DNA of 64,000 bases, from NCBI GenBank assembly GCA_025823825.1, contig GCA_025823825.1_4720.1; one strand, 5' to 3'. The position numbers were made by a program, and so were the translations under genes. Origin of the DNA: a phage. The first letter of the stretch is position 1, and every line of letters begins with the position of its first letter. Below, one piece after another: positions 37,146 to 48,340 of the stretch. The notes under the pieces were generated by a model. That model saw nothing but the letters and a program-made list of their open reading frames with translations. It was not told the DNA's origin and did no database searches.

Positions 37146-38081
37146 TTAGCCTTGTTCTTCTGGAGAACGACCCTGGAGGCTTGCGGTATGTCCGTCGACG
37201 TTGTAATAGAAAATCAATGGACCGCCAACGGCAGTACAGTAGTTTTCATCCAGACTGATCTCGATACCGTATTGGTAACCTGCTCTTGCTGGAATACGTC
37301 CGCCTAACTCACCGTTGAAAGCCACTTTAGCATTATACAGGTTATACGGTGCGACATTGTCGTCTAATACCCAACGATCGGTAGTCATTTCAGCCAGAAG
37401 ATCGGCAACCACCACATCGCTAATAACTGTACCTGTTACCAGCGAAGCCAGCAGTTCACCGTAATCAGAGGTATCACGACTGTAACTGTAAATCTCACCG
37501 CTAGCGCGTACGCCTTGACCAAAGAACTTAAGACCATCCAGCTCCTTGATCGCGATAATATCATCAAGATTCGGTACACGCGACTTCATCAAGATACGAA
37601 CGCTCCCCGTCCAAGCCAGGCAGTTAGATGCGACACGAAGCAATTGTCCGTTAACAGTATCCCAGTTAAGTTCGTCGTTGACGATTTCTTCCGCGGTAAG
37701 ACCAAGACCGAAACGTTCTTTGATGATAGGCCAGATATCACGCATCTTGGCGGCGTCTGGCGCATCGATAAGAATAGGAGCTACGTTACGCAGATACGCA
37801 CCGATGTTAATACGGTCGTAATACAGTGTCGTCGAACCTTCGTAATCGTCTAACTCGGTAAGCTTAGCGGTTGCTGTCGCCGTAATCTGGGTGTCGCGCT
37901 CATAGGCGCTTTGGTTGGTGGTTGGTGTTCCTAAAACCAATAATTCAGGGGTTAGGATATGCTCTCCGTTCTGAGGTGGGTTATCGTGGTTGATAAGACC
38001 ATACACGAGATCGGATGAGGGTAAAGAGACGTCGACCGGGTAAAGTTCGGTGTCGTCAATAGTTGTTACCGTATCACTCAC
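37146..38081 (-). CDS. paralogous virion-type protein, family member C (311 aa)
   Basis: Motifs ERFGLGL, TDRWVLDDN, NLYNAKV and LDENYCTAVGGPLIFYYN. Confidence 0.6.
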   Translation of the reverse strand: MSDTVTTIDDTELYPVDVSLPSSDLVYGLINHDNPPQNGEHILTPELLVLGTPTTNQSAYERDTQITATATAKLTELDDYEGSTTLYYDRINIGAYLRNVAPILIDAPDAAKMRDIWPIIKERFGLGLTAEEIVNDELNWDTVNGQLLRVASNCLAWTGSVRILMKSRVPNLDDIIAIKELDGLKFFGQGVRASGEIYSYSRDTSDYGELLASLVTGTVISDVVVADLLAEMTTDRWVLDDNVAPYNLYNAKVAFNGELGGRIPARAGYQYGIEISLDENYCTAVGGPLIFYYNVDGHTASLQGRSPEEQG

Positions 38082-38140
38082 GGTGACCTCCTCGCCAGGA
38101 ATTAGATAAAAAAGACTTTACGATTTGCTGCGCTATCACG

Positions 38141-40552
38141 TTAAACGTCCTCGATAGGCAAAGGTTTAACAATCAAACGATTGAGCGGATTCGATAGACG
38201 CATACTGATAGGCTTATACGCAACATGATTCGTCTCACTTAGAGCCACTGATCTGAAACGACCGTTCAACCGTTTGTAAATCGGTTCTATCCAGAGACCT
38301 CGAAGATCACGTTTACGGAAACGTTGTTCGAACGGTTTGATTGGGGTTACGGTTAACCCACGCAACGACTCTGATGGCAGACGCTCACGAAGGTCGCGTG
38401 GTGCCCGACCTGGGAACGGTGCAAGCCACAAACCATCGAGCGGATTTTTACGGAAACGCAACGAGACAGGATCGCTAATGACTTGTGCCCAATATTGCGT
38501 ACTGAATCGAACGGTTTGGGTGTTCTCGTAACCACTACAATCACACCAGGTTGGTTTCGGAGGCGCTTCCAAACTTTCAACCGCCGATTCACGCCAGTTC
38601 GTCATCGGGTTGTTATCATGTACGAATTTGATAACTTCCGTAGCCTGGTTATCCGTATCATGAACGTTTGCCTGTGCCCAGTCTTCCCACAGTTCTTCAC
38701 TACCACTTACTAAACTCGAACCGAGACGAACGGCGATTTTATTTAGTGGTTTGATTGGGTCACTGTTGATTGTCTGGATAAAATGGATGGTGTAACTGCT
38801 CAATGTCTTAAGCAGCTGCAGCATTCCGTATTGAATATCCTTAAGACTGGTGACATCTTCCAAATCCTGGCCGGTGGCCTTTGTGAAGATATCGAGAGCC
38901 AGAATACCCGCCTCTTCTTGACTGATTGCGTCAAGCTCCCAATCCATCGATAAGAACCATTCCTTGTAAAGCTGTCCAATACCGAAGTCGACACCAACAT
39001 CCATGTAGAAGTTTTCAACGATTGCTTCAGCCATGCCTCGAGCTTGATAATGTTCTTGGAGCTGATACATGAACTGATGGCGACGCCAGCCCTGGTAAAT
39101 CTCGGTAACGGCGCTCAGAAACTCTTCAGTACTGACGACAGCACGCAGCGTCACTTGCTTATCCAAACACCACCAGATCAGTTTATCGGGAATGATAGCA
39201 GGATCGGTAATGCTACGGAGATGGTCGAATGTCGGTAGCGTTAACACCCTGACGTGGTTAGCATGGATCTTAGGTACTTCAATCAGCGTCATGCCCATCG
39301 AATAGTTCAGCAAATACAAGAACAGCTTGTATGCATCTTTCATCGACATCGTCATGGTATCACCCGTCACCGGGTTGGTTGTCGTTAACCGTGACTGATA
39401 CATGCCTATCGCGCTAAGATGAATCCATTCGTTCAGCAGGAAATCATACTTAGGATACAGTTCACTGTCTGTAAGGTCTTCGGCTTCACTTTCCAACACC
39501 TTGGTCGTTAAGGTATTGTTGTCATGCATCGACATCTTCTCTATCGTGCGGTTAAGCTCGGTATAATACTCCGCTTCGTTATCCCGCGCTAGAGGGAACT
39601 GTTGCTGCATCACGGTGGTGACCTTACGTCTTACCGTGCCATTACCGACGATCTCTTGAAGGTTAAGCGGTTTACGCTCCATGTAAACTGCGGGTTTTAA
39701 CGTCTGGGGTATCTCGGAAGCGTCTTGTTTGATCGAGAACGCACCGATTGGAATTCCACGATCGGTTAATACCTTTTGAATGAGCTTATCGTAGTTTTCC
39801 GTTCTGCCCATGTTTCTTTCAACGTAAGCGATGTTACGATAGAACCAGAGCATTTGGGATTCGGTCATGTATCGCTTGAATCGATCGAGACCTTGATGGC
39901 TTGCCAGATAACTCCAGATATGGAAGCTATGGGCATAATGGGTATGACAGTTTTCCCAACGAATACCTTTTATCATCTCAGGTATTTGTGTGAATAGGAT
40001 GGCGTATAGCGCAGGCCAATGAAGCATATCGACGCTCTCATATGCCGGATGTTCCCAGCGTCTGAAGTAATCGTCGATTTCTTGCTGTAAACGTGGAATA
40101 AGATTGGCCTCGCGTGACTCAACCTCTTGTGTATCGTACCAGAGAATCTCATGATTGCGTGCCGCAATTGCTTTCTCGATATCGATGGGGTTAAGGATAC
40201 CCAAGATCAACATACGTTGTTCCGGGTACCGCGCAATTAAACGATTGAAATAATCTCCACCATACGCGTATTCCCTTGCCGTCATGCGATGCCGTAACAT
40301 GTTTTCCTTGGTGAACTCGATCTCTTCGAGCGTATCCAGGGAATTTACGGTCATCATTGTCTGACAAGGATGATACTCGCCAGCGAGATTCATGTAGTAT
40401 AACCACGTGCGTGGGTCGTCCCCGACGGCCATCTGGTAGACTTCGGAAACCTTGAGGTTTAACCGTTCTGCCGTGATGTCGCTTTTAATAATCAGGGTGT
40501 CCGTTAGACGCTGCACGCTTTCCGAATAAAGCTGATAGTCAGTGTTGGACAC
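38141..40552 (-). CDS. large hypothetical protein with C-terminal RFRK..GLW repeats
   Basis: Track ORF 38141..40621 (TTG start); GTG at 40552 has GGAGGA 6 nt upstream and avoids overlap with the divergent gene. C-terminal repeats LRFRKNPLDGLWLAPFP / RFRKRDLRGLWIEPIYK / GRFRSVALSE. Confidence 0.55.
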   Translation of the reverse strand: MSNTDYQLYSESVQRLTDTLIIKSDITAERLNLKVSEVYQMAVGDDPRTWLYYMNLAGEYHPCQTMMTVNSLDTLEEIEFTKENMLRHRMTAREYAYGGDYFNRLIARYPEQRMLILGILNPIDIEKAIAARNHEILWYDTQEVESREANLIPRLQQEIDDYFRRWEHPAYESVDMLHWPALYAILFTQIPEMIKGIRWENCHTHYAHSFHIWSYLASHQGLDRFKRYMTESQMLWFYRNIAYVERNMGRTENYDKLIQKVLTDRGIPIGAFSIKQDASEIPQTLKPAVYMERKPLNLQEIVGNGTVRRKVTTVMQQQFPLARDNEAEYYTELNRTIEKMSMHDNNTLTTKVLESEAEDLTDSELYPKYDFLLNEWIHLSAIGMYQSRLTTTNPVTGDTMTMSMKDAYKLFLYLLNYSMGMTLIEVPKIHANHVRVLTLPTFDHLRSITDPAIIPDKLIWWCLDKQVTLRAVVSTEEFLSAVTEIYQGWRRHQFMYQLQEHYQARGMAEAIVENFYMDVGVDFGIGQLYKEWFLSMDWELDAISQEEAGILALDIFTKATGQDLEDVTSLKDIQYGMLQLLKTLSSYTIHFIQTINSDPIKPLNKIAVRLGSSLVSGSEELWEDWAQANVHDTDNQATEVIKFVHDNNPMTNWRESAVESLEAPPKPTWCDCSGYENTQTVRFSTQYWAQVISDPVSLRFRKNPLDGLWLAPFPGRAPRDLRERLPSESLRGLTVTPIKPFEQRFRKRDLRGLWIEPIYKRLNGRFRSVALSETNHVAYKPISMRLSNPLNRLIVKPLPIEDV

Positions 40553-40579: not shown

Positions 40580-43489
40580 ATGAACGATATAAATAAAGGG
40601 CGCGTCGCCCTCGAACGTCAAATGAGCAATAATGACGTTGCGAAGGCACTCATGAACAAATTTGTCGCTCCTGCTCCGCAGTCACGTCTTTATAATACAC
40701 GTGATGCGGAAGGAGCGAACGGTCGTTTCGGGTTAGTTGTTCCCGACCAAATGACGATGAACACGGTTACGCGTGCGACCGCGACAAACATCGAGGATAA
40801 TAAAAACATCCTCGAGTTGTTCCCTGAACTTAAACGCGTGATGCAGATCTATGTTGCCGCGTTGACGAACCCTAACGATCTTAAGACGGTCGAGATGTTT
40901 ATCGACAGCGAAGATTTCCCCGGCAGAGTCGCAGAAATCGTTCAGCCGATGATCGATACCATCGACACGCATTTTAAGAATATCTATAAAATAAAGACGC
41001 TTATCCCTCGTATCATCGAAGACGTCTTCTTTATCAAGGGCAGTTATAACTTCGTTGTTCTGCCGGAAAGCACGCTCGACCGCGCCATTAATGGTAACGG
41101 TCAACTGAAACTTGAAGAATACGGATTTAAAGACAACCATTTTGCAAGTTGGGGGCTTCTAGGTAACGACAGTCGCAAACGCCACGAAAATCAATTACCT
41201 GCGACGGTTTCGATGGAAGATTATTTCTCGGGTGTTAATGAAACCATACCGTACGATCCTGTTGTTCGCATAGACAGCATCAAGTTTACCAATACCCTGC
41301 TTCGCGATAAGGACGGTAAATTCATTGAAGCGAAGATCGATATTCCGGATATGGTTACGGTTGTCGATAACCCAGACATCCTCCGCATGCCTATTCTGCA
41401 TCAACGTCGAGCAGCGACAGCAGTGCAGCGTGCGTTACGCGCAAACACGTTAGGAGGTAGTGGTTTGGTAACGCTGTCAGGCGATCCGACCCTAACCGCT
41501 AACCGACGTGAGCTGTCGCAAGAACAGGTTAACGAGATCTGGAATAAGCTCAACATCCAGCGCCACACCAAGGTATCGCCCGTTTACGCGCTGGCAACCC
41601 CAGATACGCTTGATCGTCAAAGCGTTGGCCATCCTGGCGTGATGCATGTACCACCTGAGGCATTAGAACCCGTACATGCGCCCGGTGATCCTGAGAACCA
41701 TATCGGGTATTTGGTTCAGTTGGATGAGTTTGGTTATCCAGTACGTTTGGTTGAAGATGCGGCGTATTACAAGCAGTTGGAAGGTCGGTTGTCGAAGATC
41801 ACCGCAGATATCGCAGGTACGTCAAGCAACGGCATGGCGAGCGAGATGATTGGTGCAGCCAAGAACATGATCCAAGGTACGTCATGTAATCAGGTAGACA
41901 TGTCGGCCTTCGTATCATCGTACGAATCGCTGATGCAACGTTACATTGTCGAACGTATCGTTAACGGTTATCTTGGCAGTGCGGTGGAGATCGGTGCGAC
42001 ATCGTCGTTTTATCTGTCGATGCTTGCTCGTAGCCTCGCTCACAAGCAGACCCGTGTTTTGTTTATTCCTCGAGAGATGGTGACTTACATCGCCTATGAA
42101 TACAACAAATACGGTATCGGTCGTTCGCTGCTTGAAAGTACGAAGATGATCTCATCGCAACGAGCCATGCTCATGGTTCAAGAACTGATGGCAAAAATCA
42201 AAAGTTCGTTGAACTATACGACGCTAAGCGTAATGCTTGAAGACACCGACAGAAACCCGGTCGATACCGTCGAACAAGCGCTGCATAGTTTCGCTCGTGT
42301 CTACCAGTCTGGTTTCCCGTTGGGTGAAACTAACCCGATGGATATCATCAACGCGTACGAACGAAGCTCGATTCGATTGAAGGTTGAGGGGAATAACCCA
42401 CGCTTCCCGAAATTGAATACAGACGTCAGTGTTGAGCAGCGTAACTATCAGTCTCCTGATAATGAGCTGATGGATCGTTACCGTCGTGACCATTTCATGG
42501 GCTTGGGTGTGTCTCCGGAGATTATCGATACTTCCTACCAATCTGAATTCGCAGCTTCTGTGATTACAGCTAACGCGATGCAAGAGAAACAGTTCACGGT
42601 TTGTCGTGAGGTGATCACGAATGGGTTATCGGACCACATCAAGAAATATACGGCATACAGTCCCGTGTTGTTGACGTCGTTACGAAACACGGTTCGTGCG
42701 AACATGTCTAAGCTTTCCCAGGCACAATTGAAGCAGCTTTTTGGTAGCGATTTCGAAAACGGTGTTATCCGTAACGTTAACGCCTATCAGGAGATTGACG
42801 ACCAATCAGCAACAATGGATCTGGATTACACTAAACCAGAAGTCCAGGAAGTTATTGCCGATGCTTATGTGTCCATGTTCTTAAACAGCCTGCGTGTGCG
42901 TTTACCGGATAGCAATGCTCGTCGCCTTGAAGATCAGGTACGTGAATATAATCAGTACAAGGAAGCGATTACTGCGCAACTTGATGATTATTTAACGCCC
43001 GATTACGTCATGGGTCTGGGTGGGGTTGATGAAACAACGCTGCAGATGATCCGCGCATGCATTATTGGTACCGCGATGCGTACGTGGGCAAAAGAGAACA
43101 ACTTCAATCAGGAGCTGGCTGATCTCTTCAGTCTTGACGATAAGAAGAATGCCGTGCAAGATTGGAAACGTATGTCCATGGAACATATTGAAGTCATGGG
43201 TAAATGCATGGGTGATTTTGCATTGTATATTCAGAATCTGACGAAGAAGATTGAAGAGAAGATGGGAGCTCAAGCACAGGACGGTAGCGTTTCATCTGAT
43301 GGTTCGTGGTCATCCGATTCAAGTAGCGATACCGGTTCTTCTGATGACTTCGGTGGCGGTGACGATTTCGGAGATACCGATTTCGATACCGAAACGATGG
43401 AGGAAACCTCAACAGAAGAAACAACCACATCTGAGGATACGACGACCGACACAACGTCAGAAGACGATACTTCAGGTGACATTGTCTAA
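40580..43489 (+). CDS. large hypothetical protein with acidic Ser/Thr/Asp-rich C-terminal tail (969 aa)
   Basis: AAGGAG 10 nt upstream of ATG; the last about 70 aa are ...SSDGSWSSDSSSDTGSSDDFGGGDDFGDTDFDTETMEETSTEETTTSEDTTTDTTSEDDTSGDIV. Confidence 0.6.
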   Translation: MNDINKGRVALERQMSNNDVAKALMNKFVAPAPQSRLYNTRDAEGANGRFGLVVPDQMTMNTVTRATATNIEDNKNILELFPELKRVMQIYVAALTNPNDLKTVEMFIDSEDFPGRVAEIVQPMIDTIDTHFKNIYKIKTLIPRIIEDVFFIKGSYNFVVLPESTLDRAINGNGQLKLEEYGFKDNHFASWGLLGNDSRKRHENQLPATVSMEDYFSGVNETIPYDPVVRIDSIKFTNTLLRDKDGKFIEAKIDIPDMVTVVDNPDILRMPILHQRRAATAVQRALRANTLGGSGLVTLSGDPTLTANRRELSQEQVNEIWNKLNIQRHTKVSPVYALATPDTLDRQSVGHPGVMHVPPEALEPVHAPGDPENHIGYLVQLDEFGYPVRLVEDAAYYKQLEGRLSKITADIAGTSSNGMASEMIGAAKNMIQGTSCNQVDMSAFVSSYESLMQRYIVERIVNGYLGSAVEIGATSSFYLSMLARSLAHKQTRVLFIPREMVTYIAYEYNKYGIGRSLLESTKMISSQRAMLMVQELMAKIKSSLNYTTLSVMLEDTDRNPVDTVEQALHSFARVYQSGFPLGETNPMDIINAYERSSIRLKVEGNNPRFPKLNTDVSVEQRNYQSPDNELMDRYRRDHFMGLGVSPEIIDTSYQSEFAASVITANAMQEKQFTVCREVITNGLSDHIKKYTAYSPVLLTSLRNTVRANMSKLSQAQLKQLFGSDFENGVIRNVNAYQEIDDQSATMDLDYTKPEVQEVIADAYVSMFLNSLRVRLPDSNARRLEDQVREYNQYKEAITAQLDDYLTPDYVMGLGGVDETTLQMIRACIIGTAMRTWAKENNFNQELADLFSLDDKKNAVQDWKRMSMEHIEVMGKCMGDFALYIQNLTKKIEEKMGAQAQDGSVSSDGSWSSDSSSDTGSSDDFGGGDDFGDTDFDTETMEETSTEETTTSEDTTTDTTSEDDTSGDIV

Positions 43490-43574: not shown

Positions 43575-43850
43575 TTATTTCGAGGTTAACCACGATTCAA
43601 TTATGGTGAGTTTGCTTCTCAGTACGCGCCAACTAGGGTGTGGTGGGATCACAGCGCCATTGTCGATTACGGTTAGCTGAACCTGGTACTTCTGTTGCAT
43701 ACGCGCTACCGTGTCGCTTATCGAGAGGAAAAGCTGGTAACGTTCATATGCCGTCAGTTCACTGTCCTGTTGAACTGCGTTGGCTGCTAACGTAATTTCG
43801 CGTAAGTCCTTTGCATCCACAGAGACGGTAATGAGTTTATATTGACTCAT
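43575..43850 (-). CDS. hypothetical protein (91 aa)
   Basis: Track ORF. Confidence 0.5.
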   Translation of the reverse strand: MSQYKLITVSVDAKDLREITLAANAVQQDSELTAYERYQLFLSISDTVARMQQKYQVQLTVIDNGAVIPPHPSWRVLRSKLTIIESWLTSK

Positions 43851-43869: not shown

Positions 43870-43891
43870 GGGTATTGCAAATACAATACCC
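43870..43891. promoter_or_regulatory. palindrome GGGTATTG-CAAATA-CAATACCC
   Basis: 8-bp perfect stem between genes, about 30 nt upstream of the start at 43850. Confidence 0.4.
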
Positions 43892-43911
43892 ACCGTCGGA
43901 CGATAAGTTAA

Positions 43912-46470
43912 TTACTGCTCTTCACGTTCCAGCAGATACTCGGAAGCGGTAATACCGTTTACCGTACGTACTGCTTTCAGACGAGTATCATCGCTCAGAA
44001 TTACAGTAACAGATTGCAGACCTTTTACTTTGGTTTCGAAGGTCTTGAACACCTGATCCAGCATACGAGCAATGCTTGGGTTGGTTGCAGCCGATGCGTG
44101 AGTGTAACCGCTCTGATTCAGCTTCAGAATCTTGGCGTTGGTCGGTACGCGAACAACAACATGTGGGCGCATCGCGAATACGCTGTGATTGAACCAGTAA
44201 GCGTCGTTACTATCTTCGTCGGTAACGATGTCTGGATTAACACGCATATCCTCGACAGCCGCATCCGCCAAACGACGTTCGATTTCATCGGCGTCCAGAG
44301 AGCCATCTTTCTCCAGTTCTGCACGATACTCACTCATGGCAACCAGATGACGTTCACGATTCGCTGCAGATTTTTCGTGAGCGGCTTTCAGGTAGTCATG
44401 CATGTTGTACAGTTCAGCCATGGAAAGACGAATGTTCCACTGACCTTCGCCATCACGATTGCAGTAGAGACACTTCAGCATGTTGACCCAGGTGTAGTAG
44501 CAATTGGCGAATTCATCTTCAATGAACTTCTGGTCCATTTTAAGATCGTGAATCAGCCAACCGGACAGTTCTCCGATATCATCAACGAAGCTAGAGATGG
44601 TGGTTTCAGAGAAGTTCTTCGGTACGATACGTTTGATCAGCTTATTGACGTCTTTGGTCATGCTATCGTTCAGGAAATGCCAGATACGCAGAGGAATGAC
44701 ATCTCGATACTGTTGCATGATCTGACGATAAGCTTTGATATCGTCGCTACGACCTTTATCAATAGACAACGCATCCAGGAATTCATGGATTGCATCCAGC
44801 TCTTTGTCGGTATAGGTTCCCAGATAGGAATTGACGGTGGCCAGGAATGCTAATGCGTCGTTTTGGTTGACGTCGGTGTTGGTCTGCTGAATGATCGCCA
44901 CTGCAGCTTTAGTTTCAGCATCCTCAACGCTTGACGCTGCGATCGCGTCGGTGACGGTAAACAGTTTCATTTCGCGCTGTTCACCGACAACGATTGGCTC
45001 ACGCTGAACCGGCTTGTTAAGACTAACGCGAACAACTTCTGCTTGCGCGATACGATCCAGTTTTGCCATTTCCTGCTCTGCCATACGACGAGCGGTTGGA
45101 TCTGATTCAAGTTCGATGTATTCCACTTCTTCCTCCGTGAGGGATGTAATGTCAACAATGGTTTCATGAAGAATTCCGTTTTCGTCGATACGTGCCCGAC
45201 GAGCGAAGTGCCTGAAGTCATACAACGTCGGCCAACGACAATTAGGCGCATAGTCTTTGGCTTTCAGACGCATCTGCATAAATTCATCATGTTGAACAAC
45301 ACGACCGTAACGCTTAGCATCTTCGGTCGCATCAATTGGATTAACGGTCTTTGTTGCCGTAGCGGAACGAGCCGTACGAACCGGTTCCGGTTTCACCTGT
45401 GCCGGTTCAGGTTGAACGGGTTTCTGCTGTCCAGCCTTAACATGCCATTCTGGCTCTTCGTACTGTTCAGCAAATTGCTCAGCCGCTGCAAAGATATCGT
45501 TGATACCACCAATATCTCCTTCAGGATTTGTCGAGTAAATCCGTGGTTGCGGTGCCTCGTAACGCGGCGCTGTAGCAGCAGGTGCCTCATCAACGTTATG
45601 ATCGTCATCACCAACATCATACAAACGGTTGAACGCACAATCCTTCGAATCAATGTACGATGGTGTTTGTGGTTGGACAACCGTAGGCCGAGGTTGTGCG
45701 CCGTATCCTGGTGTTGTTGGAGCCATACCACGCATAACTGCCGGGTTAGGTTGGTATTGTGGTTGCGGGTAGGTTCCACCATACGTGGCGTACGCAGGCT
45801 GTTGCGGTTGACCGTATCCACCACCAACCATCGCACTTGCTTGCGGCCCACGATAAGTCATCCCCATCTGCATCACCTGCTGCTTCAAACCGCGTGACTT
45901 CTGAGCGATTTGCGCTAGGCTTCCGCTTTTATTCAGCTGCGTGTACTTATTCGCGGCTTCCGGGTTAATGCGTGATAATTCGATCGCGCGATAATATTCC
46001 GGGTACTGATTAGGTTCAAAGAGCCACGTTACAAGATGATACAGCGCAACTGTGCTCACAGCAGCAGAGACGATCTGGTCGTCGGACGCGTTCTGTGGCA
46101 TCGGGTTGATGTAAGAGAACACGTTCCAACAACAGTCTTCAACAAGCGATTCCATCATCATATCGTTATTGGTATAACGTGCGACGAACTCGGTTTGTAT
46201 TTTGTCTTGCTGAGCGAAGTCTTTCAGGACATTAAAGATGGCTTGACGGATTTTGACGATCGTCGCTTCTTGGGTGATGAAGTTATAGTTCTGCTGATAT
46301 GAGGGTTGTTGGTATTGTGGTGGTTGATAGGCGTTATTCGGGTATGCGCCGTACGGCGATTGCTGATACTGTTGCTGACGAACCTGTTCAGCCGCATGAT
46401 TAATCGTGCTCGTATAAGGGTTTTCGCTATAGCCCATTTGCTGATACATGTTGTTACTGCCATTATACAT
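43912..46470 (-). CDS. protein with Gln/Tyr/Pro-rich low-complexity regions (852 aa)
   Basis: AAGGA Shine-Dalgarno; N-terminus QQYQQSPYGAYPNNAYQPPQYQQPSYQQNY and a second stretch GGGYGQPQQPAYATYGGTYPQPQYQPNPAVMRGMAPTTPGYGAQPRPTVVQPQTPSY. Confidence 0.65.
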   Translation of the reverse strand: MYNGSNNMYQQMGYSENPYTSTINHAAEQVRQQQYQQSPYGAYPNNAYQPPQYQQPSYQQNYNFITQEATIVKIRQAIFNVLKDFAQQDKIQTEFVARYTNNDMMMESLVEDCCWNVFSYINPMPQNASDDQIVSAAVSTVALYHLVTWLFEPNQYPEYYRAIELSRINPEAANKYTQLNKSGSLAQIAQKSRGLKQQVMQMGMTYRGPQASAMVGGGYGQPQQPAYATYGGTYPQPQYQPNPAVMRGMAPTTPGYGAQPRPTVVQPQTPSYIDSKDCAFNRLYDVGDDDHNVDEAPAATAPRYEAPQPRIYSTNPEGDIGGINDIFAAAEQFAEQYEEPEWHVKAGQQKPVQPEPAQVKPEPVRTARSATATKTVNPIDATEDAKRYGRVVQHDEFMQMRLKAKDYAPNCRWPTLYDFRHFARRARIDENGILHETIVDITSLTEEEVEYIELESDPTARRMAEQEMAKLDRIAQAEVVRVSLNKPVQREPIVVGEQREMKLFTVTDAIAASSVEDAETKAAVAIIQQTNTDVNQNDALAFLATVNSYLGTYTDKELDAIHEFLDALSIDKGRSDDIKAYRQIMQQYRDVIPLRIWHFLNDSMTKDVNKLIKRIVPKNFSETTISSFVDDIGELSGWLIHDLKMDQKFIEDEFANCYYTWVNMLKCLYCNRDGEGQWNIRLSMAELYNMHDYLKAAHEKSAANRERHLVAMSEYRAELEKDGSLDADEIERRLADAAVEDMRVNPDIVTDEDSNDAYWFNHSVFAMRPHVVVRVPTNAKILKLNQSGYTHASAATNPSIARMLDQVFKTFETKVKGLQSVTVILSDDTRLKAVRTVNGITASEYLLEREEQ

Positions 46471-46504
46471 TTCTTACGATCCTTTTTATTTATTCGGTTA
46501 TGTG

Positions 46505-48301
46505 TCAATCGATTATGTCACGATCGTTAATTTCTACAATTTCTTCATCGAATCGACCGACGTCTTTCTTCAATCCTGCATTGGTTGCTGCAACGTCATT
46601 TGCAATTTGTGGGGTAATGATTAACCGACCACGTTCGTCGATAGGTGCGTACATACTGAACTTCTGACGTCCGGTTGGTTCGGAGTGTGGAAGATTCAGA
46701 TAGCTTGCACAGAACGGGATGGAACCACTAACCAAACGACTCTCGTCAGCCAATGCAGCACCGCCTGCGTTTTGGCTCTGGAGAACAACATGCGTGCTCA
46801 CTTTGAACAGCATGCAATCACCAGGTGACTGAATCGATGTTGCCACTTTCTCACGTTTATCACGATTGCTCTGGATATTGAGAATCGCTTCCGTTGCAAC
46901 TTGATTTCGCAACGCCTTCTGTACATCGCGATTGGTCATCTCTTTACGGTTGTTCTGTCGTTTACCACGTTCTGTGGTTTTAAGATGGAACCCCAGTTTA
47001 AAGATGCTCTTACGCACATCCTCCATGACATATTCCAACACCATCAATTCCTTACCGAACATCGTCGTGGTATCAACACGACTCATTTCGATAGTGACAT
47101 TGTCAATCAGATACGCCATAAATTCGTAGAAGTCGTCGCAAGGAATATTTTCCTGTTTGAACTTCTTCTGCTGAATCTCGTCAACGTAAAGATCGAGACT
47201 GTCGATGTGGTGGTTTACATCACGCAACAAACGTGCATCCGCGTTGTTGTTATTAAAGATAATCAAACCGAGTAATGTACGCCAATGGTCTGGCGCATTC
47301 GCGAACTCCTCAACCGGATAGTCTTCCGGAAAACGATCGTAATAACGGTCGATGAGATACAAGAATGCACCGACAAGGCCAAGAACAATACGTTCCGTGC
47401 CTCCACGTCTTACAGCAATTTGAATATCAGGATGTTTGTAACGTACAGCGCTAGCGCTACGGCTTTTACCGCTTTTGCTGATACTAAAACCTTTAGGAAT
47501 AACCCCCATGGTGCGATAGATTACCCATTGGTCACGCGGAAAATCACGTTCAGCAAGGTTCCGTCCGGTTACGGCTTCGACACCTGCAAAACGTCGGAAA
47601 CACTCACCCACACCGTACTTCGCAAAGAGATAGTGACCCAGTGTGGTTACGCTGGTGTGGTTGATGTTGTCACCGTTCACTTTACTTTGTTTGGTAAGAT
47701 GATAGATTTGTGACCAGGGTAATGACAGGTAATGACGATAATCGATACCGGTCGGTGTATCATTGCTCAGGAACTGATACGGCGTACGTTTAACCGTGAT
47801 TTTATCACGCGGAAGCATGATGAACGCCATGTCTTTCGTGTAACTGATTACGGGGTCAGCGAGTACCGCACTGAGAATGAAGTTCGCACCACGTAGACGC
47901 ATTTTACCACCCTGACCTACCGCGGGTAATAGGAGAGGATGTCGGATAATGCAGTAGTCCTTTCCTGGTTCACGACGGTCACCTGATTCCATCGCGCCGT
48001 ACCAGCGGAATTCCAGCATCACCATAAACACATCGGAAGGCGCAAGGTCGAAGGTCAGCTTACCGCTATCCTTCCCTTTGGTTTTCTTTCCTCCGCTTAA
48101 GTAGTGGAACTGTTCGCGGGCCATACAACGACGCAGGCCATGATACACCAGATCCTTAGGTAAACTATCTTTGCTGTTCCGCCAAAGACGATCAACATAG
48201 GACTCAACATCTTGCATCTTATCGACGACGATGTTGCGTGCTATCTTCTCGTTCATCTTCGGTGCAAGCTCAGCGACAGCTTTGCAGAATCTAGGATCCA
48301 T
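46505..48301 (-). CDS. hypothetical protein (598 aa)
   Basis: Track ORF starts at GTG 48304; the ATG at 48301 has AAGGAG 6 nt upstream. Confidence 0.6.
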   Translation of the reverse strand: MDPRFCKAVAELAPKMNEKIARNIVVDKMQDVESYVDRLWRNSKDSLPKDLVYHGLRRCMAREQFHYLSGGKKTKGKDSGKLTFDLAPSDVFMVMLEFRWYGAMESGDRREPGKDYCIIRHPLLLPAVGQGGKMRLRGANFILSAVLADPVISYTKDMAFIMLPRDKITVKRTPYQFLSNDTPTGIDYRHYLSLPWSQIYHLTKQSKVNGDNINHTSVTTLGHYLFAKYGVGECFRRFAGVEAVTGRNLAERDFPRDQWVIYRTMGVIPKGFSISKSGKSRSASAVRYKHPDIQIAVRRGGTERIVLGLVGAFLYLIDRYYDRFPEDYPVEEFANAPDHWRTLLGLIIFNNNNADARLLRDVNHHIDSLDLYVDEIQQKKFKQENIPCDDFYEFMAYLIDNVTIEMSRVDTTTMFGKELMVLEYVMEDVRKSIFKLGFHLKTTERGKRQNNRKEMTNRDVQKALRNQVATEAILNIQSNRDKREKVATSIQSPGDCMLFKVSTHVVLQSQNAGGAALADESRLVSGSIPFCASYLNLPHSEPTGRQKFSMYAPIDERGRLIITPQIANDVAATNAGLKKDVGRFDEEIVEINDRDIID

Positions 48302-48340
48302 CACACACTCCTTTCAGAAAGTTGCTTAAGCAGATTAAAG

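Follow-up and report, generated by a model that had tools for sequence, protein, structure and literature searches.

The 852-residue protein analysed here is the counterpart of gp38 of phage Goslar, and it is probably (at roughly 80%) the Goslar-lineage JADA, an orthologue of phiKZ gp124 and Pa36 gp316. The first of its two low-complexity tracts would be a lineage-specific N-terminal extension and the second the first ~70 residues of a family-wide linker. Judged by profiles and gene order, gp38 is an additional member of an already described family, which is confined to nucleus-forming Chimalliviridae phages and reaches, by position and profile, every chimallivirus lineage sampled. JADA is essential to nucleus-forming jumbo phages and is a trigger of Avs5; annotation by Pfam, PHROGs and NCBIfam misses the placement of gp38, which comes from an E. 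coli model phage. On compositional grounds, the JADA linker is never a bland spacer, being either Tyr/Gln-rich and prion-like or Arg-rich with mixed charge. Term searches of the JADA paper and a 2026 jumbo-phage review found no mention of this two-flavour feature.

In JADA, a long disordered linker joins an N-domain to a C-domain that forms dimers (Mol Cell 2026; PDB 9RP3). In the solved structure of Pa36 gp316 the C-domain, residues 270-721, forms a rigid dimer, and this domain triggers the Avs5 NADase defence. Early, abundant expression and essentiality are known for phiKZ gp124, in part from an antisense-oligomer screen, and JADA is described as newly made and abundant at 10 min; knock-down in Pseudomonas phages strongly affects phage transcription. 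In P. aeruginosa, Pa36 JADA is diffuse and then, upon infection, forms distinct foci at the early-infection (EPI) vesicle. What is said of the timing of expression, essentiality and localisation for Goslar gp38 is carried over from these Pseudomonas phages, at ~15% identity.

The gene and its probable place in the JADA family

The window, that is, the whole 64,000-nucleotide stretch analysed, comes from a Goslar-like Chimalliviridae phage (98.3% nucleotide identity). The gene (Table 1) corresponds to Goslar gp38 (Goslar_00038 / YP_009820723), with 98.3% nucleotide and 98.8% amino acid identity to Goslar positions 37235-39793. It lies on the minus strand; the first-pass annotation had given no strand. 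That annotation had held that the low-complexity regions are no artefact of frame choice, and both frame and start proved sound. A wrong frame or start is ruled out by the AAGGA motif, by an excess of synonymous over nonsynonymous codon differences from Goslar (30 versus 10), by N-terminal tract lengths that differ by a net 11 residues, in frame, in the relatives P0003 and P0004, and by 26 Goslar gp038 peptides (28% coverage) in published virion LC-MS/MS data. Tandem Repeats Finder detected no DNA tandem repeat in the gene, and the pentads of the N-terminal tail are degenerate at the DNA level.

Table 1 Coordinates of gp38, its parts and its neighbours in the window
Feature	Position	Strand	Basis
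Complete CDS, 852 aa + stop, ATG start	43912..46470	-	ORF listing
N-terminal low-complexity tail, aa 1-64, lineage-specific; degenerate Tyr-x4 pentads (YQQSP YGA YPNNA YQPPQ YQQPS YQQN)	46279..46470	-	composition, Tyr spacing
Small helical N-domain, ~aa 65-199, counterpart of JADA N-terminal domain	45874..46278	-	AF2, hhalign, family profile
LC2, aa 200-272, Q/P/G/Y-rich start of family-wide linker	45655..45873	-	composition, anchor alignment
Rest of linker, aa 273-384: acidic patch LYDVGDDD, Pro-rich stretches	45319..45654	-	hydrophobic-depleted segment
C-terminal domain, ~aa 385-852, homologous to dimeric JADA C-domain	43915..45318	-	hhalign, family profile, Foldseek
Shine-Dalgarno-like AAGGA, 9 nt 5' of ATG at 46470	46480..46484	-	read in sequence
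Upstream neighbour, non-virion RNA polymerase (nvRNAP) beta-subunit fragment = Goslar gp39, phiKZ gp123 family	46505..48304	-	phrog_2943 'polymerase', E 7e-120
Downstream 91-aa ORF = Goslar gp37	43575..43850	-	ORF listing, Goslar match
Portal gene = Goslar gp36, convergent to gp38	40580..43489	+	phrog_3004, E 5.6e-161

The gene follows gp39 co-directionally after a gap of 34 nt. By tblastn, gp39 has matches in 218 chimallivirus records, and Table S4 of the Goslar study labels it nvRNAP; gp36 is the portal in the Goslar cryo-EM work. A small ORF at the gp37 position is also present in several relatives. A marginal hairpin lies at 43888-43908, just 3' of the gp38 stop, and a promoter and terminator scan gave counts no higher than in shuffled sequence.

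Gene order is conserved. An nvRNAP beta-subunit gene is followed immediately, on the same strand, by a gp38-type gene in every one of the 18 genomes or contigs compared (the window, Goslar, 201phi2-1, phiKZ, Eowyn, Deimos-Minion, PCH45, RP12, pTD1, Miami, EL, PhiEaH1, Yaphecito, RSF1, Xoo-sp14, FBKp24 and two metagenomic contigs). The order runs MCP, gp122-like gene, nvRNAP beta and a 656-881-aa protein (JADA), with the convergent portal further downstream where the retrieved stretch reaches that far. The JADA paper likewise describes the position next to the nvRNAP subunit gene as invariant, and this neighbour is the anchor by which JADA genes are defined.

Profile comparisons point the same way. 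In hhalign, the Goslar group aligned with 11 orthologues at 98.8% probability (E 6.3e-17, aa 409-667), and with 18 orthologues at 99.3% (E 3.5e-20) over 681 columns spanning aa 48-850, the N-domain included. A profile of 18 orthologues, built without phiKZ and 201phi2-1, matches 9RP3 with E 2e-30, in both the N-domain (residues 62-264, i-E 1.1e-6) and the C-domain (residues 362-719, i-E 9.9e-21); the sequence of 9RP3 is essentially that of phiKZ gp124. In an independent orthologue table, Goslar gp038 shares one column with RAY gp004, 201phi2-1 gp204 and PhiPA3 AEH03563, and 201phi2-1 gp204 is annotated as 'similar to phiKZ gp124'.

The link to JADA rests on profile-profile and transitive evidence together with synteny, because direct searches from the Goslar group miss JADA. 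Searching 1.84 billion representatives by phmmer with the gp38 C-domain returned its own cluster and P0005 only, and the Goslar-group profile ranked 9RP3 first in the PDB at a non-significant E of 1.3. Against phages, tblastn and megablast of gp38 found Goslar only. A word-indexed homologue search gave 4-6 proteins, low-complexity words probably crowding the candidate list. No family in Pfam, PHROGs or NCBIfam matched gp38, a Pfam Cas9_C_2 hit being dismissed as chance (18.6 bits, cutoff 27); its orthologues are split over PHROGs 15010, 11639 and 13213, none of them annotated. Membership in JADA, and the fact that the linker had already been reported as disordered, were missed in the first-pass annotation.

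Structure prediction adds a model-level view. A first AF2 model of gp38 reached a mean pLDDT of 37, the all-helical N-domain being its best part (pLDDT 53-63). When the AF2 model of the C-domain, made from a shallow alignment of 7 sequences, was compared by Foldseek with 350,542 PDB chains, 9RP3 was the sole significant match (E 3.3e-6, probability 1.00), with a TM score of 0.20, an r.m.s.d. of 21 Å and a model mean pLDDT of 52. Because both models are poor (pLDDT 37 and 52) and the TM score is low, a 9RP3-like dimeric fold of gp38 is putative, and we set the fold geometry of the models aside.

Composition of the tracts and of the linker

The first-pass annotation described the N-terminal 60 residues and a second stretch of about 70 residues as almost entirely Q, Y, P, G, N and A. 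The enrichment is real: the peak fraction of these residues in gp38 is 0.93, 0.75 and 0.71 in windows of 30, 60 and 70 aa, values reached in 0 of 20,000 shuffles, and among the window's 46 ORFs with 200 aa or more, gp38 ranks first (runner-up, 0.57). The wording was too strong, with fractions of 0.73 over aa 1-60 (0.91 over aa 32-64) and 0.70 over aa 200-270 (0.79 over aa 215-262), compared with 0.38 for the whole protein. Residues such as M, S, T, V, R and E make up some 27-30% of both tracts, and the bias of aa 1-31 is moderate only, while aa 32-64 contain no charged and one hydrophobic residue. Over aa 1-73 the composition is Q 21%, N 12%, Y 15%, P 8%, S 7% and charged 7%; Pro rises from 8% in the N-terminal tail to ~18% in LC2 (13 of 73 residues). 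The remainder, previously taken as ordinary globular sequence, is so in part: aa 273-385, too, hold few hydrophobic and many Pro and acidic residues, and a hydrophobic-depletion proxy flags aa 151-410 as a single segment.

In the tracts, uncharged polar residues are enriched and charged and aliphatic residues depleted, as the compositional definition of a prion-like domain asks. Tyr recurs about every five residues over aa 32-64, a window picked post hoc, with a spacing CV of 0.27 against 0.71 in shuffles; its spacing is also regular in the relative P0004 (P = 0.0003). In LC2 and several orthologues, shuffle tests found Tyr spacing no more regular than chance. The likeness to eukaryotic prion-like domains that the first-pass annotation had drawn therefore stands for composition and Tyr patterning, but a Pro content of 8-13% and a maximum of 26 Q/N per 80 aa argue against an amyloid prion. 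The Q/N-rich label is reportedly applied from 30 Q/N per 80 residues upwards, a criterion said to come from Michelitsch and Weissman (2000). The relatives P0004, P0006 and Deimos-Minion reach 30, and Eowyn 33. High Pro disfavours amyloid prions and favours extended, non-aggregating chains. Such domains are uncommon, not unheard of, in phages, since the 5,040 predicted cases among 370,617 phage proteins come to about 1.4%; their description as unusual in phage proteins is kept in this weaker form.

Conservation in homologues, proposed earlier as a check, differs between the tracts. Both are kept in the close relatives P0003 and P0004, where LC2 is 83-84% identical, on a par with the folded N-domain. 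The N-terminal tract is absent in the nearest outgroup, P0005 (38% C-domain identity), and in most orthologues, among them phiKZ, 201phi2-1, Eowyn, P0007 and every orthologue with an arginine-rich linker, and linker composition varies.

A hydrophobic-poor segment of 100-230 aa with net charge near zero follows the N-domain in 19 of 19 proteins surveyed; its composition, and the lack of density for it in 9RP3, lead us to infer that it is disordered. The JADA counterpart of LC2 is the linker of residues 171-269, which lacks cryo-EM density. An aligned G-[Y/R], here GGGY219, serves as the LC2 anchor and aligns across both linker types. Further along the gp38 linker, aa 323-342 form a short acidic helix, INDIFAAAEQFAEQYEEPEW, placed by AF2 secondary structure at aa 323-335; the motif is kept in P0005 and RAY-like orthologues. 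As a lead only, an [L/A]-Y-D-V linker motif recurs as LYDVG in Goslar, LYDVP in 201phi2-1 and AYDVP in phiKZ; it has no confident hhalign alignment, and [FY][DE] is common by chance.

The linker comes in two flavours, uncharged and Q/Y/P/G-rich or arginine-rich with mixed charge. The latter occurs in PCH45, PhiEaH1, Yaphecito, RSF1, Xoo-sp14 and FBKp24, with 16-22% Arg, 35-51% charged residues, a net charge near zero and a high density of RD/DR, RS/SR and RG/RGG dipeptides. Flavour switches inside clades of the nvRNAP gene tree, namely {Eowyn, 201phi2-1, phiKZ, Xoo-sp14} (bootstrap 100) and {RSF1, P0007 contig} (88). Locus GC is 0.48-0.57 with arginine-rich and 0.37-0.49 with Q/Y-rich linkers, and both flavours are present at 0.47-0.49.

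Possible roles of the tracts

The tracts may be passive spacers, entropic tethers that hold the N-domain off the C-domain dimer, with selection on length, flexibility and solubility and with the Q/Y/P flavour drifting under mutational bias. We put this at somewhat short of even odds. Flavour switching within well-supported nvRNAP clades, the higher GC of loci with arginine-rich linkers, the dispensability of the N-terminal tract in evolution and a Pro content of 11-13%, suited to extended chains, all agree with it. However, the GC ranges overlap, with both flavours in the overlap; the Tyr spacing of aa 32-64 exceeds chance regularity; in close relatives LC2 matches the folded N-domain in conservation; and near-zero net charge and the G-[Y/R] anchor are common to both flavours. 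Moreover, both flavours are classic cohesive grammars, unlike the Gly/Ser or Pro/Ala/Lys spacers expected of a tether. If the tracts are passive, the finding comes down to a disordered linker of the usual kind in a protein already known. Tentatively, and from sequence patterning, uncharged tracts with evenly spaced Tyr 'stickers' on a dimer could instead combine weak multivalent self-association with long reach; they would help gather gp38 at the infection site, and no heritable prion would form. The partial dependence of linker composition on genomic GC is also compatible with neutral drift and counts against a sticker role. Putative condensate scaffolding by the tracts is plausible, and the two linker flavours offer a testable handle on how JADA is concentrated at the infection site, in a tractable E. 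coli system. It is doubtful that the tracts are prion-like or phase-separating domains in the literal sense, with liquid or amyloid assembly making gp38 a condensate scaffold in infected cells. Composition and Tyr patterning, the relatives with 30-33 Q/N per 80 aa, the foci of the Pa36 orthologue, the precedent of ChmC and the valence added by a dimeric C-domain would suit such a scaffold; but gp38 itself stays below 30 Q/N and is high in Pro, JADA foci could just as well arise because the protein binds a structure such as the vesicle, polysomes or nascent RNA, and most orthologues need the same essential function while lacking the N-terminal tract. Broader, and in our view unlikely, is a linker that acts as a cohesive module and, with the dimeric C-domain, builds a condensate round the early-infection vesicle, gathering early phage mRNAs, ribosomes and new nvRNAP subunits before the protein nucleus forms. 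Evolution would have swapped this module repeatedly between Tyr-rich prion-like and arginine-rich mixed-charge/RGG grammars, Tyr and Arg being interchangeable at the G-[Y/R] anchor. If true, a nucleus-forming phage has a nuclear-body-like organiser, which would explain both the essentiality of JADA and the guarding of that site by Avs5.

Two further proposals concern the virion and the host. That gp38 is packaged and injected, its low-complexity N-terminus being a packaging or processing region (cut, for example, by the prohead protease), is improbable. The Goslar LC-MS/MS data correspond to ~25 gp038 copies per virion (range 17-39), near the portal estimate of 16 and ~40- to 250-fold over the nvRNAP subunits gp039 (0.14) and gp175 (0.58) and the DNA polymerase (0.1). 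The same preparation nevertheless holds the non-virion proteins ChmA (~126), PhuZ (~171) and ChmC (~78), so abundant proteins co-purify. Also against packaging, JADA is described as made afresh and already abundant 10 min into infection, the annotation of 201phi2-1 gp204 lacks the note 'identified as virion protein by mass spectrometry' that its neighbours carry, and gp38 is missing from the 28-protein Goslar virion model and from the text of that paper. Host mimicry, by which LC2 would imitate a host linker, such as the Gly/Gln/Pro-rich one of E. coli SSB, and so enter host protein hubs, seems very improbable. After 9RP3, the next PDB matches of the Goslar-group profile pair LC2 (GYGQPQQP..GG..PQ) with GGWGQPQQPQGGNQFSGGAQSRPQQ of the E. 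coli SSB linker, and an acidic DDD patch follows LC2 as in the SSB tip; phiKZ gp124 is among three proteins said, in a paper citing an affinity-purification study, to bind DnaX and FtsZ. The SSB matches are compositional and not significant (E 7-10), and the linkers of orthologues from phages of other hosts are unrelated in composition; we dropped the similarity.

Comparison with known systems

The likeness of LC2 to the SSB linker is local, GGYGQPQQP against GGWGQPQQP followed by an acidic patch (E = 7, not significant), and gp38 lacks the OB fold and the conserved C-terminal tip motif of SSB. The FUS-family low-complexity domains and the yeast Sup35 N domain, as generally described, resemble the gp38 tracts in being uncharged, rich in Q/N/Y/G/P and built of degenerate short repeats with evenly spaced Tyr. 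By contrast, the gp38 tracts span 33-70 residues rather than more than 120, hold more Pro, fall below 30 Q/N per 80 aa and are not conserved across orthologues. Eukaryotic arginine-rich mixed-charge and RGG/RS domains, reportedly of RNA processing, resemble the linkers of the six other JADA orthologues named above; this flavour is absent from gp38, and the relation is positional, the same linker with another composition.

Within the phage family, ChmC (PhiPA3 gp61, phiKZ gp67, Goslar gp176), an RNA-binding protein associated with the nuclear shell, is likewise present in Goslar and likewise has an uncharged polar disordered region. Its N/G-rich disordered tail is needed for RNA condensates in vitro, in assays with the PhiPA3 protein; by analogy, ChmC shows that disordered-region condensates are used in chimallivirus biology. 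Unlike gp38, ChmC has an unrelated Whirly fold, and it is disordered in a short tail at the C-terminus rather than in an internal linker. ChmC has demonstrated RNA binding and acts at the nucleus stage, whereas JADA acts at the early vesicle.

The closest comparison is JADA itself (phiKZ gp124 / Pa36 gp316). Relative to it, gp38 shows ~15% pairwise identity, is 131 residues longer, has an extra 64-residue Q/Y/N/P N-terminal tail and belongs to a phage of E. coli. Its linker is about twice as long and richer in Tyr, Gln and Pro; that of phiKZ is G 15%, P 12%, Q 9%, M 7% and Y 4%. The two proteins share the slot after a co-directional nvRNAP subunit gene, the three-part layout, the restriction to Chimalliviridae and, by profiles, homology of both folded domains.

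Reading frame, composition and setting of gp38

The first-pass annotation had described an 852-aa protein, here gp38, with two tracts made almost entirely of Q, Y, P, G, N and A within otherwise ordinary globular sequence. Both enriched tracts were confirmed. These six residues account for 38% of the whole protein, 73% of aa 1–60 and 70% of aa 200–270, rising to 79% in aa 215–262 and to 91% in aa 32–64, which holds no charged residue. Shuffling the protein 20,000 times never reached its peak fraction in windows of 30, 60 or 70 residues, and gp38 stood out as the most extreme when the window's 46 ORFs of 200 aa or more were compared, scoring 0.75 where the runner-up scored 0.57. ‘Almost entirely’ is too strong, and ‘ordinary globular’ does not suit aa 273–385, ~110 residues with few hydrophobic and many proline and acidic residues. 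The low-complexity codons are in frame, as had been stated: the frame and start are credible because an AAGGA motif lies 9 nt ahead of the ATG, codon differences from Goslar comprise 30 synonymous and 10 nonsynonymous changes, relatives show in-frame length changes in the N-terminal tract, and Goslar gp038 is represented by 26 peptides in published mass spectrometry. The tryptic peptides expected from aa 1–31 and 32–73 have 31 and 42 residues, a size at which they readily escape detection. No tandem repeat was found in the gene at the DNA level.

The gene is 98.3% identical to nucleotides 37235–39793 of Escherichia phage vB_EcoM_Goslar (Goslar_00038, gp38), annotated there as ‘hypothetical protein’. 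Directly 3′ of its stop codon, a hairpin of 9 pairs (3 of them G-C) is marginally terminator-like; terminator-like sites around gp38 are no commoner than in shuffles. The convergent portal gene encodes a C-terminal acidic low-complexity tail, and the crown domain in the Goslar cryo-EM portal model ends at residue 923 of 969.

Features of gp38 and its neighbourhood (window positions)
Feature	Position	Strand	Description
gp38 ORF	43912–46470	−	ATG start, 852 aa
Portal gene (gp36)	40580–43489	+	convergent with gp38; phrog_3004; cryo-EM assignment in Goslar
Portal C-terminal tail	43270–43489	+	~75 residues rich in Ser/Thr/Asp/Glu/Gly (…SSDGSWSSDSSSDTGSSDDFGGGDDFGDTDFDTETMEETSTEETTTSEDTTTDTTSEDDTSGDIV)
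gp37			91-aa ORF neighbouring gp38
nvRNAP beta-subunit fragment (gp39)	34 nt upstream of gp38	−	same strand as gp38; phrog_2943
Terminator-like hairpin	43888–43908	−	3′ of gp38 stop codon
G-Y at linker start	45814–45819	−	aa 218–219
SSB-like stretch	45739–45828	−	aa 215–244
Linker helix	45445–45504	−	aa 323–342, INDIFAAAEQFAEQYEEPEW

Assignment of gp38 to the JADA family

No family match for gp38 was found in Pfam, PHROGs or NCBIfam, and an exhaustive phmmer search with its C-terminal 478 residues against 1.84 billion representatives returned a sole outgroup, the 774-aa protein P0005 (38% identity). The published chimallivirus core-genome orthologue table places Goslar gp038 in one column with RAY gp004, a PhiPA3 protein and 201phi2-1 gp204, the last annotated as similar to phiKZ gp124, a JADA protein. 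Gene order points the same way. A protein of 656–881 aa directly follows the gene for the beta subunit of the non-virion RNA polymerase (nvRNAP) in every chimallivirus fetched (201phi2-1, phiKZ, Eowyn, Deimos-Minion, PCH45, RP12, pTD1, Miami, EL, PhiEaH1, Yaphecito, RSF1, Xoo-sp14, FBKp24 and the metagenomic contigs of P0005 and of a further relative, P0007). The conserved order is MCP, gp122-like, nvRNAP beta and the JADA-slot protein, with the convergent portal further downstream where the fetched stretch extends that far.

Profile comparison joined the Goslar group to 11 of these positional orthologues (hhalign, 98.8% probability, E = 6.3e-17) and to a set of 18 (99.3%, E = 3.5e-20, 681 columns, aa 48–850). 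A profile of 18 orthologues, built deliberately without phiKZ and 201phi2-1, matched PDB 9RP3 (E = 2e-30), the N-domain (i-E 1.1e-6) and the C-domain (i-E 9.9e-21) each being hit significantly on its own; the 9RP3 sequence is essentially that of phiKZ gp124. A low-confidence AF2 model of aa 375–852 (pLDDT 52) gave 9RP3 as its only significant PDB match (E = 3.3e-6), but at a TM score of 0.20, so a shared fold is tentative. Because the orthologue table, synteny and profiles converge, we firmly assign gp38 as the Goslar-lineage JADA, its two tracts being its own disordered tail and linker; it joins a known family as a new member that had gone unannotated. In the core-genome table, RSL2, RSF1 and FLC6 are without a RAY gp004 orthologue. 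In Ralstonia phage RSF1, the one of these examined, the JADA slot (L013, 6799–8769) is occupied by a 656-aa protein whose linker is arginine-rich, which makes it probable that the family is more universal than the published clustering showed.

N-terminal tail and linker across the family

The first tract (aa 1–64) is an N-terminal extension. It is kept in the close relatives P0001–P0004, with a net length difference of 11 residues. P0005, phiKZ, 201phi2-1, Eowyn and P0007 lack it, as does every orthologue whose linker is arginine-rich. The Q/M/P-rich tail of RAY-like phages is independent of it, and in the pTD1/Miami/EL group the tail is G/S/N/M-rich. The gp38 tail is patterned as degenerate Tyr-x4 pentads; tyrosine spacing in aa 32–64, a window picked post hoc, is more regular than in shuffles (CV 0.27 vs 0.71, P ~0.005), as it is in aa 1–85 of P0004 (P = 0.0003).

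The second tract (LC2, aa 200–272) is the first part of a family-wide linker, which in gp38 extends to ~aa 385 and includes an acidic patch. In each of the 19 proteins surveyed, the N-domain is followed by ~100–230 residues that are poor in hydrophobics and nearly neutral in net charge, with two alternative compositions (loci L002–L015, for example L005:6642–8705, L013:6799–8769 and L014:2975–5122). The uncharged, Q/N/Y/P/G/S/M-rich flavour, with GY/YG motifs, occurs in the Goslar group, P0006, P0007, Eowyn, Deimos-Minion, phiKZ and 201phi2-1; charged residues make up 2–17% of its low-complexity core, and 21% of the longer aa 151–410 segment of gp38. The arginine-rich, mixed-charge flavour (R 16–22%, charged 35–51%) occurs in PCH45, PhiEaH1, Yaphecito, RSF1, Xoo-sp14 and FBKp24, and abounds in RD/DR, RS/SR and RG/RGG (27 RD/DR in RSF1, 17 RS/SR in PCH45). 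Neither class cleanly accommodates RP12, which is G/S-rich and has some Arg, or the pTD1/Miami/EL group, which combines a low-complexity N-terminus and a mid-protein linker.

A neighbour-joining tree built from the neighbouring nvRNAP beta gene shows the two flavours interleaved, implying repeated switches: arginine-rich Xoo-sp14 lies within the Eowyn/phiKZ/201phi2-1 clade (100% bootstrap), and arginine-rich RSF1 is sister to the Q/Y-rich P0007 contig (88%). At the linker start, after the last N-domain helix, G-Y in Q/Y-rich proteins aligns with G-R or G-Y in arginine-rich ones. Tyr and Arg appear interchangeable at this position, a lead rather than a result, as alignments of disordered regions are fragile. 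Term searches found no mention of two linker compositions in the JADA paper (Mol Cell 2026).

Within the gp38 linker, a short acidic amphipathic helix is conserved as MQDLYNLAERFAVEEEDPMW in P0005 and IDFDSVMSLEEEEHEEPMF in RAY-like orthologues, and could be an embedded interaction motif. The P0003 gene is mosaic relative to window 43912–46470: its C-domain is 99% identical, its N-tail, N-domain and LC2 only 74–83%, which suggests recombination inside the gene near the linker.

Possible roles of the tracts

In the JADA paper (Mol Cell 2026), the protein comprises an N-domain (1–170), a long disordered region (171–269) and a C-domain (270–721), the last a rigid dimer of novel fold and the only part with cryo-EM density. 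A fluorescent fusion changed from diffuse to foci at the early-infection (EPI) vesicle upon infection, and the C-domain alone activated the Sir2 NADase of Avs5. The authors suggested a role in early gene expression; in an antisense-oligomer screen, phiKZ124 depletion strongly perturbed phage transcription at 30 min. By extension from these orthologues, gp38 would be early and essential, concentrate at the infection vesicle and affect phage transcription.

We prefer to read the tracts as a weakly self-associating, long-reach module, at a probability of about 0.3–0.35: low-charge chains with regularly spaced tyrosines, attached to a dimer, might help to form or hold foci. The main rival is a passive spacer, its composition drifting along with GC, which we rate a little short of an even chance. 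Linker flavour is partly explained by GC (0.48–0.57 at arginine-rich loci, 0.37–0.49 at Q/Y-rich loci), both flavours occurring at 0.47–0.49. In P0003 and P0004, conservation of LC2 is on a par with that of the folded N-domain (83–84% and 75–77% identity to gp38), so it is not free-running junk.

The tracts had also been called prion-like. That reading is supported in part: the composition fits; conservation does not, the tail being absent from P0005 and most orthologues, and nor does prion status. The threshold for a Q/N-rich domain is 30 Q/N per 80 residues. With 26 per 80, proline at 8% in the tail and ~18% in LC2, and a tract that is not conserved, gp38 is unlikely to be a true prion.

Virion mass spectrometry, proposed earlier as a check, is available for Goslar (bioRxiv 10.64898/2026.04.21.720040). 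It detected gp038 at ~25 copies per virion (range 17–39; Table S4), near the portal estimate and ~40- to 250-fold above nvRNAP subunits and DNA polymerase; the operon neighbour, nvRNAP gp039, stood at 0.14 (Table S4). Packaging of gp38, which such portal-like numbers would favour, is nonetheless improbable: non-virion ChmA, PhuZ and ChmC were likewise abundant in the same preparation (~80–170), so co-purification is possible, and gp38 is neither in the 28-protein structural model nor discussed in that paper.

The terms ‘phase separation’, ‘condensate’ and ‘low-complexity’ do not occur in the JADA paper text, and condensates and prions likewise go unmentioned in a 2026 jumbo-phage review. The two-flavour linker is an unexplored point that could be tested in E. 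coli/Goslar, a tractable system. Self-association would have a precedent in ChmC, a protein of this phage family that forms RNA condensates via an N/G-rich tail. At a level that is not significant (E = 7), gp38 aa 215–244 (GGYGQPQQPAY..GG..PQPQ) also resembles the disordered linker of the host E. coli SSB (GGWGQPQQPQGGNQFSGGAQSRPQQ; PDB 1EQQ).
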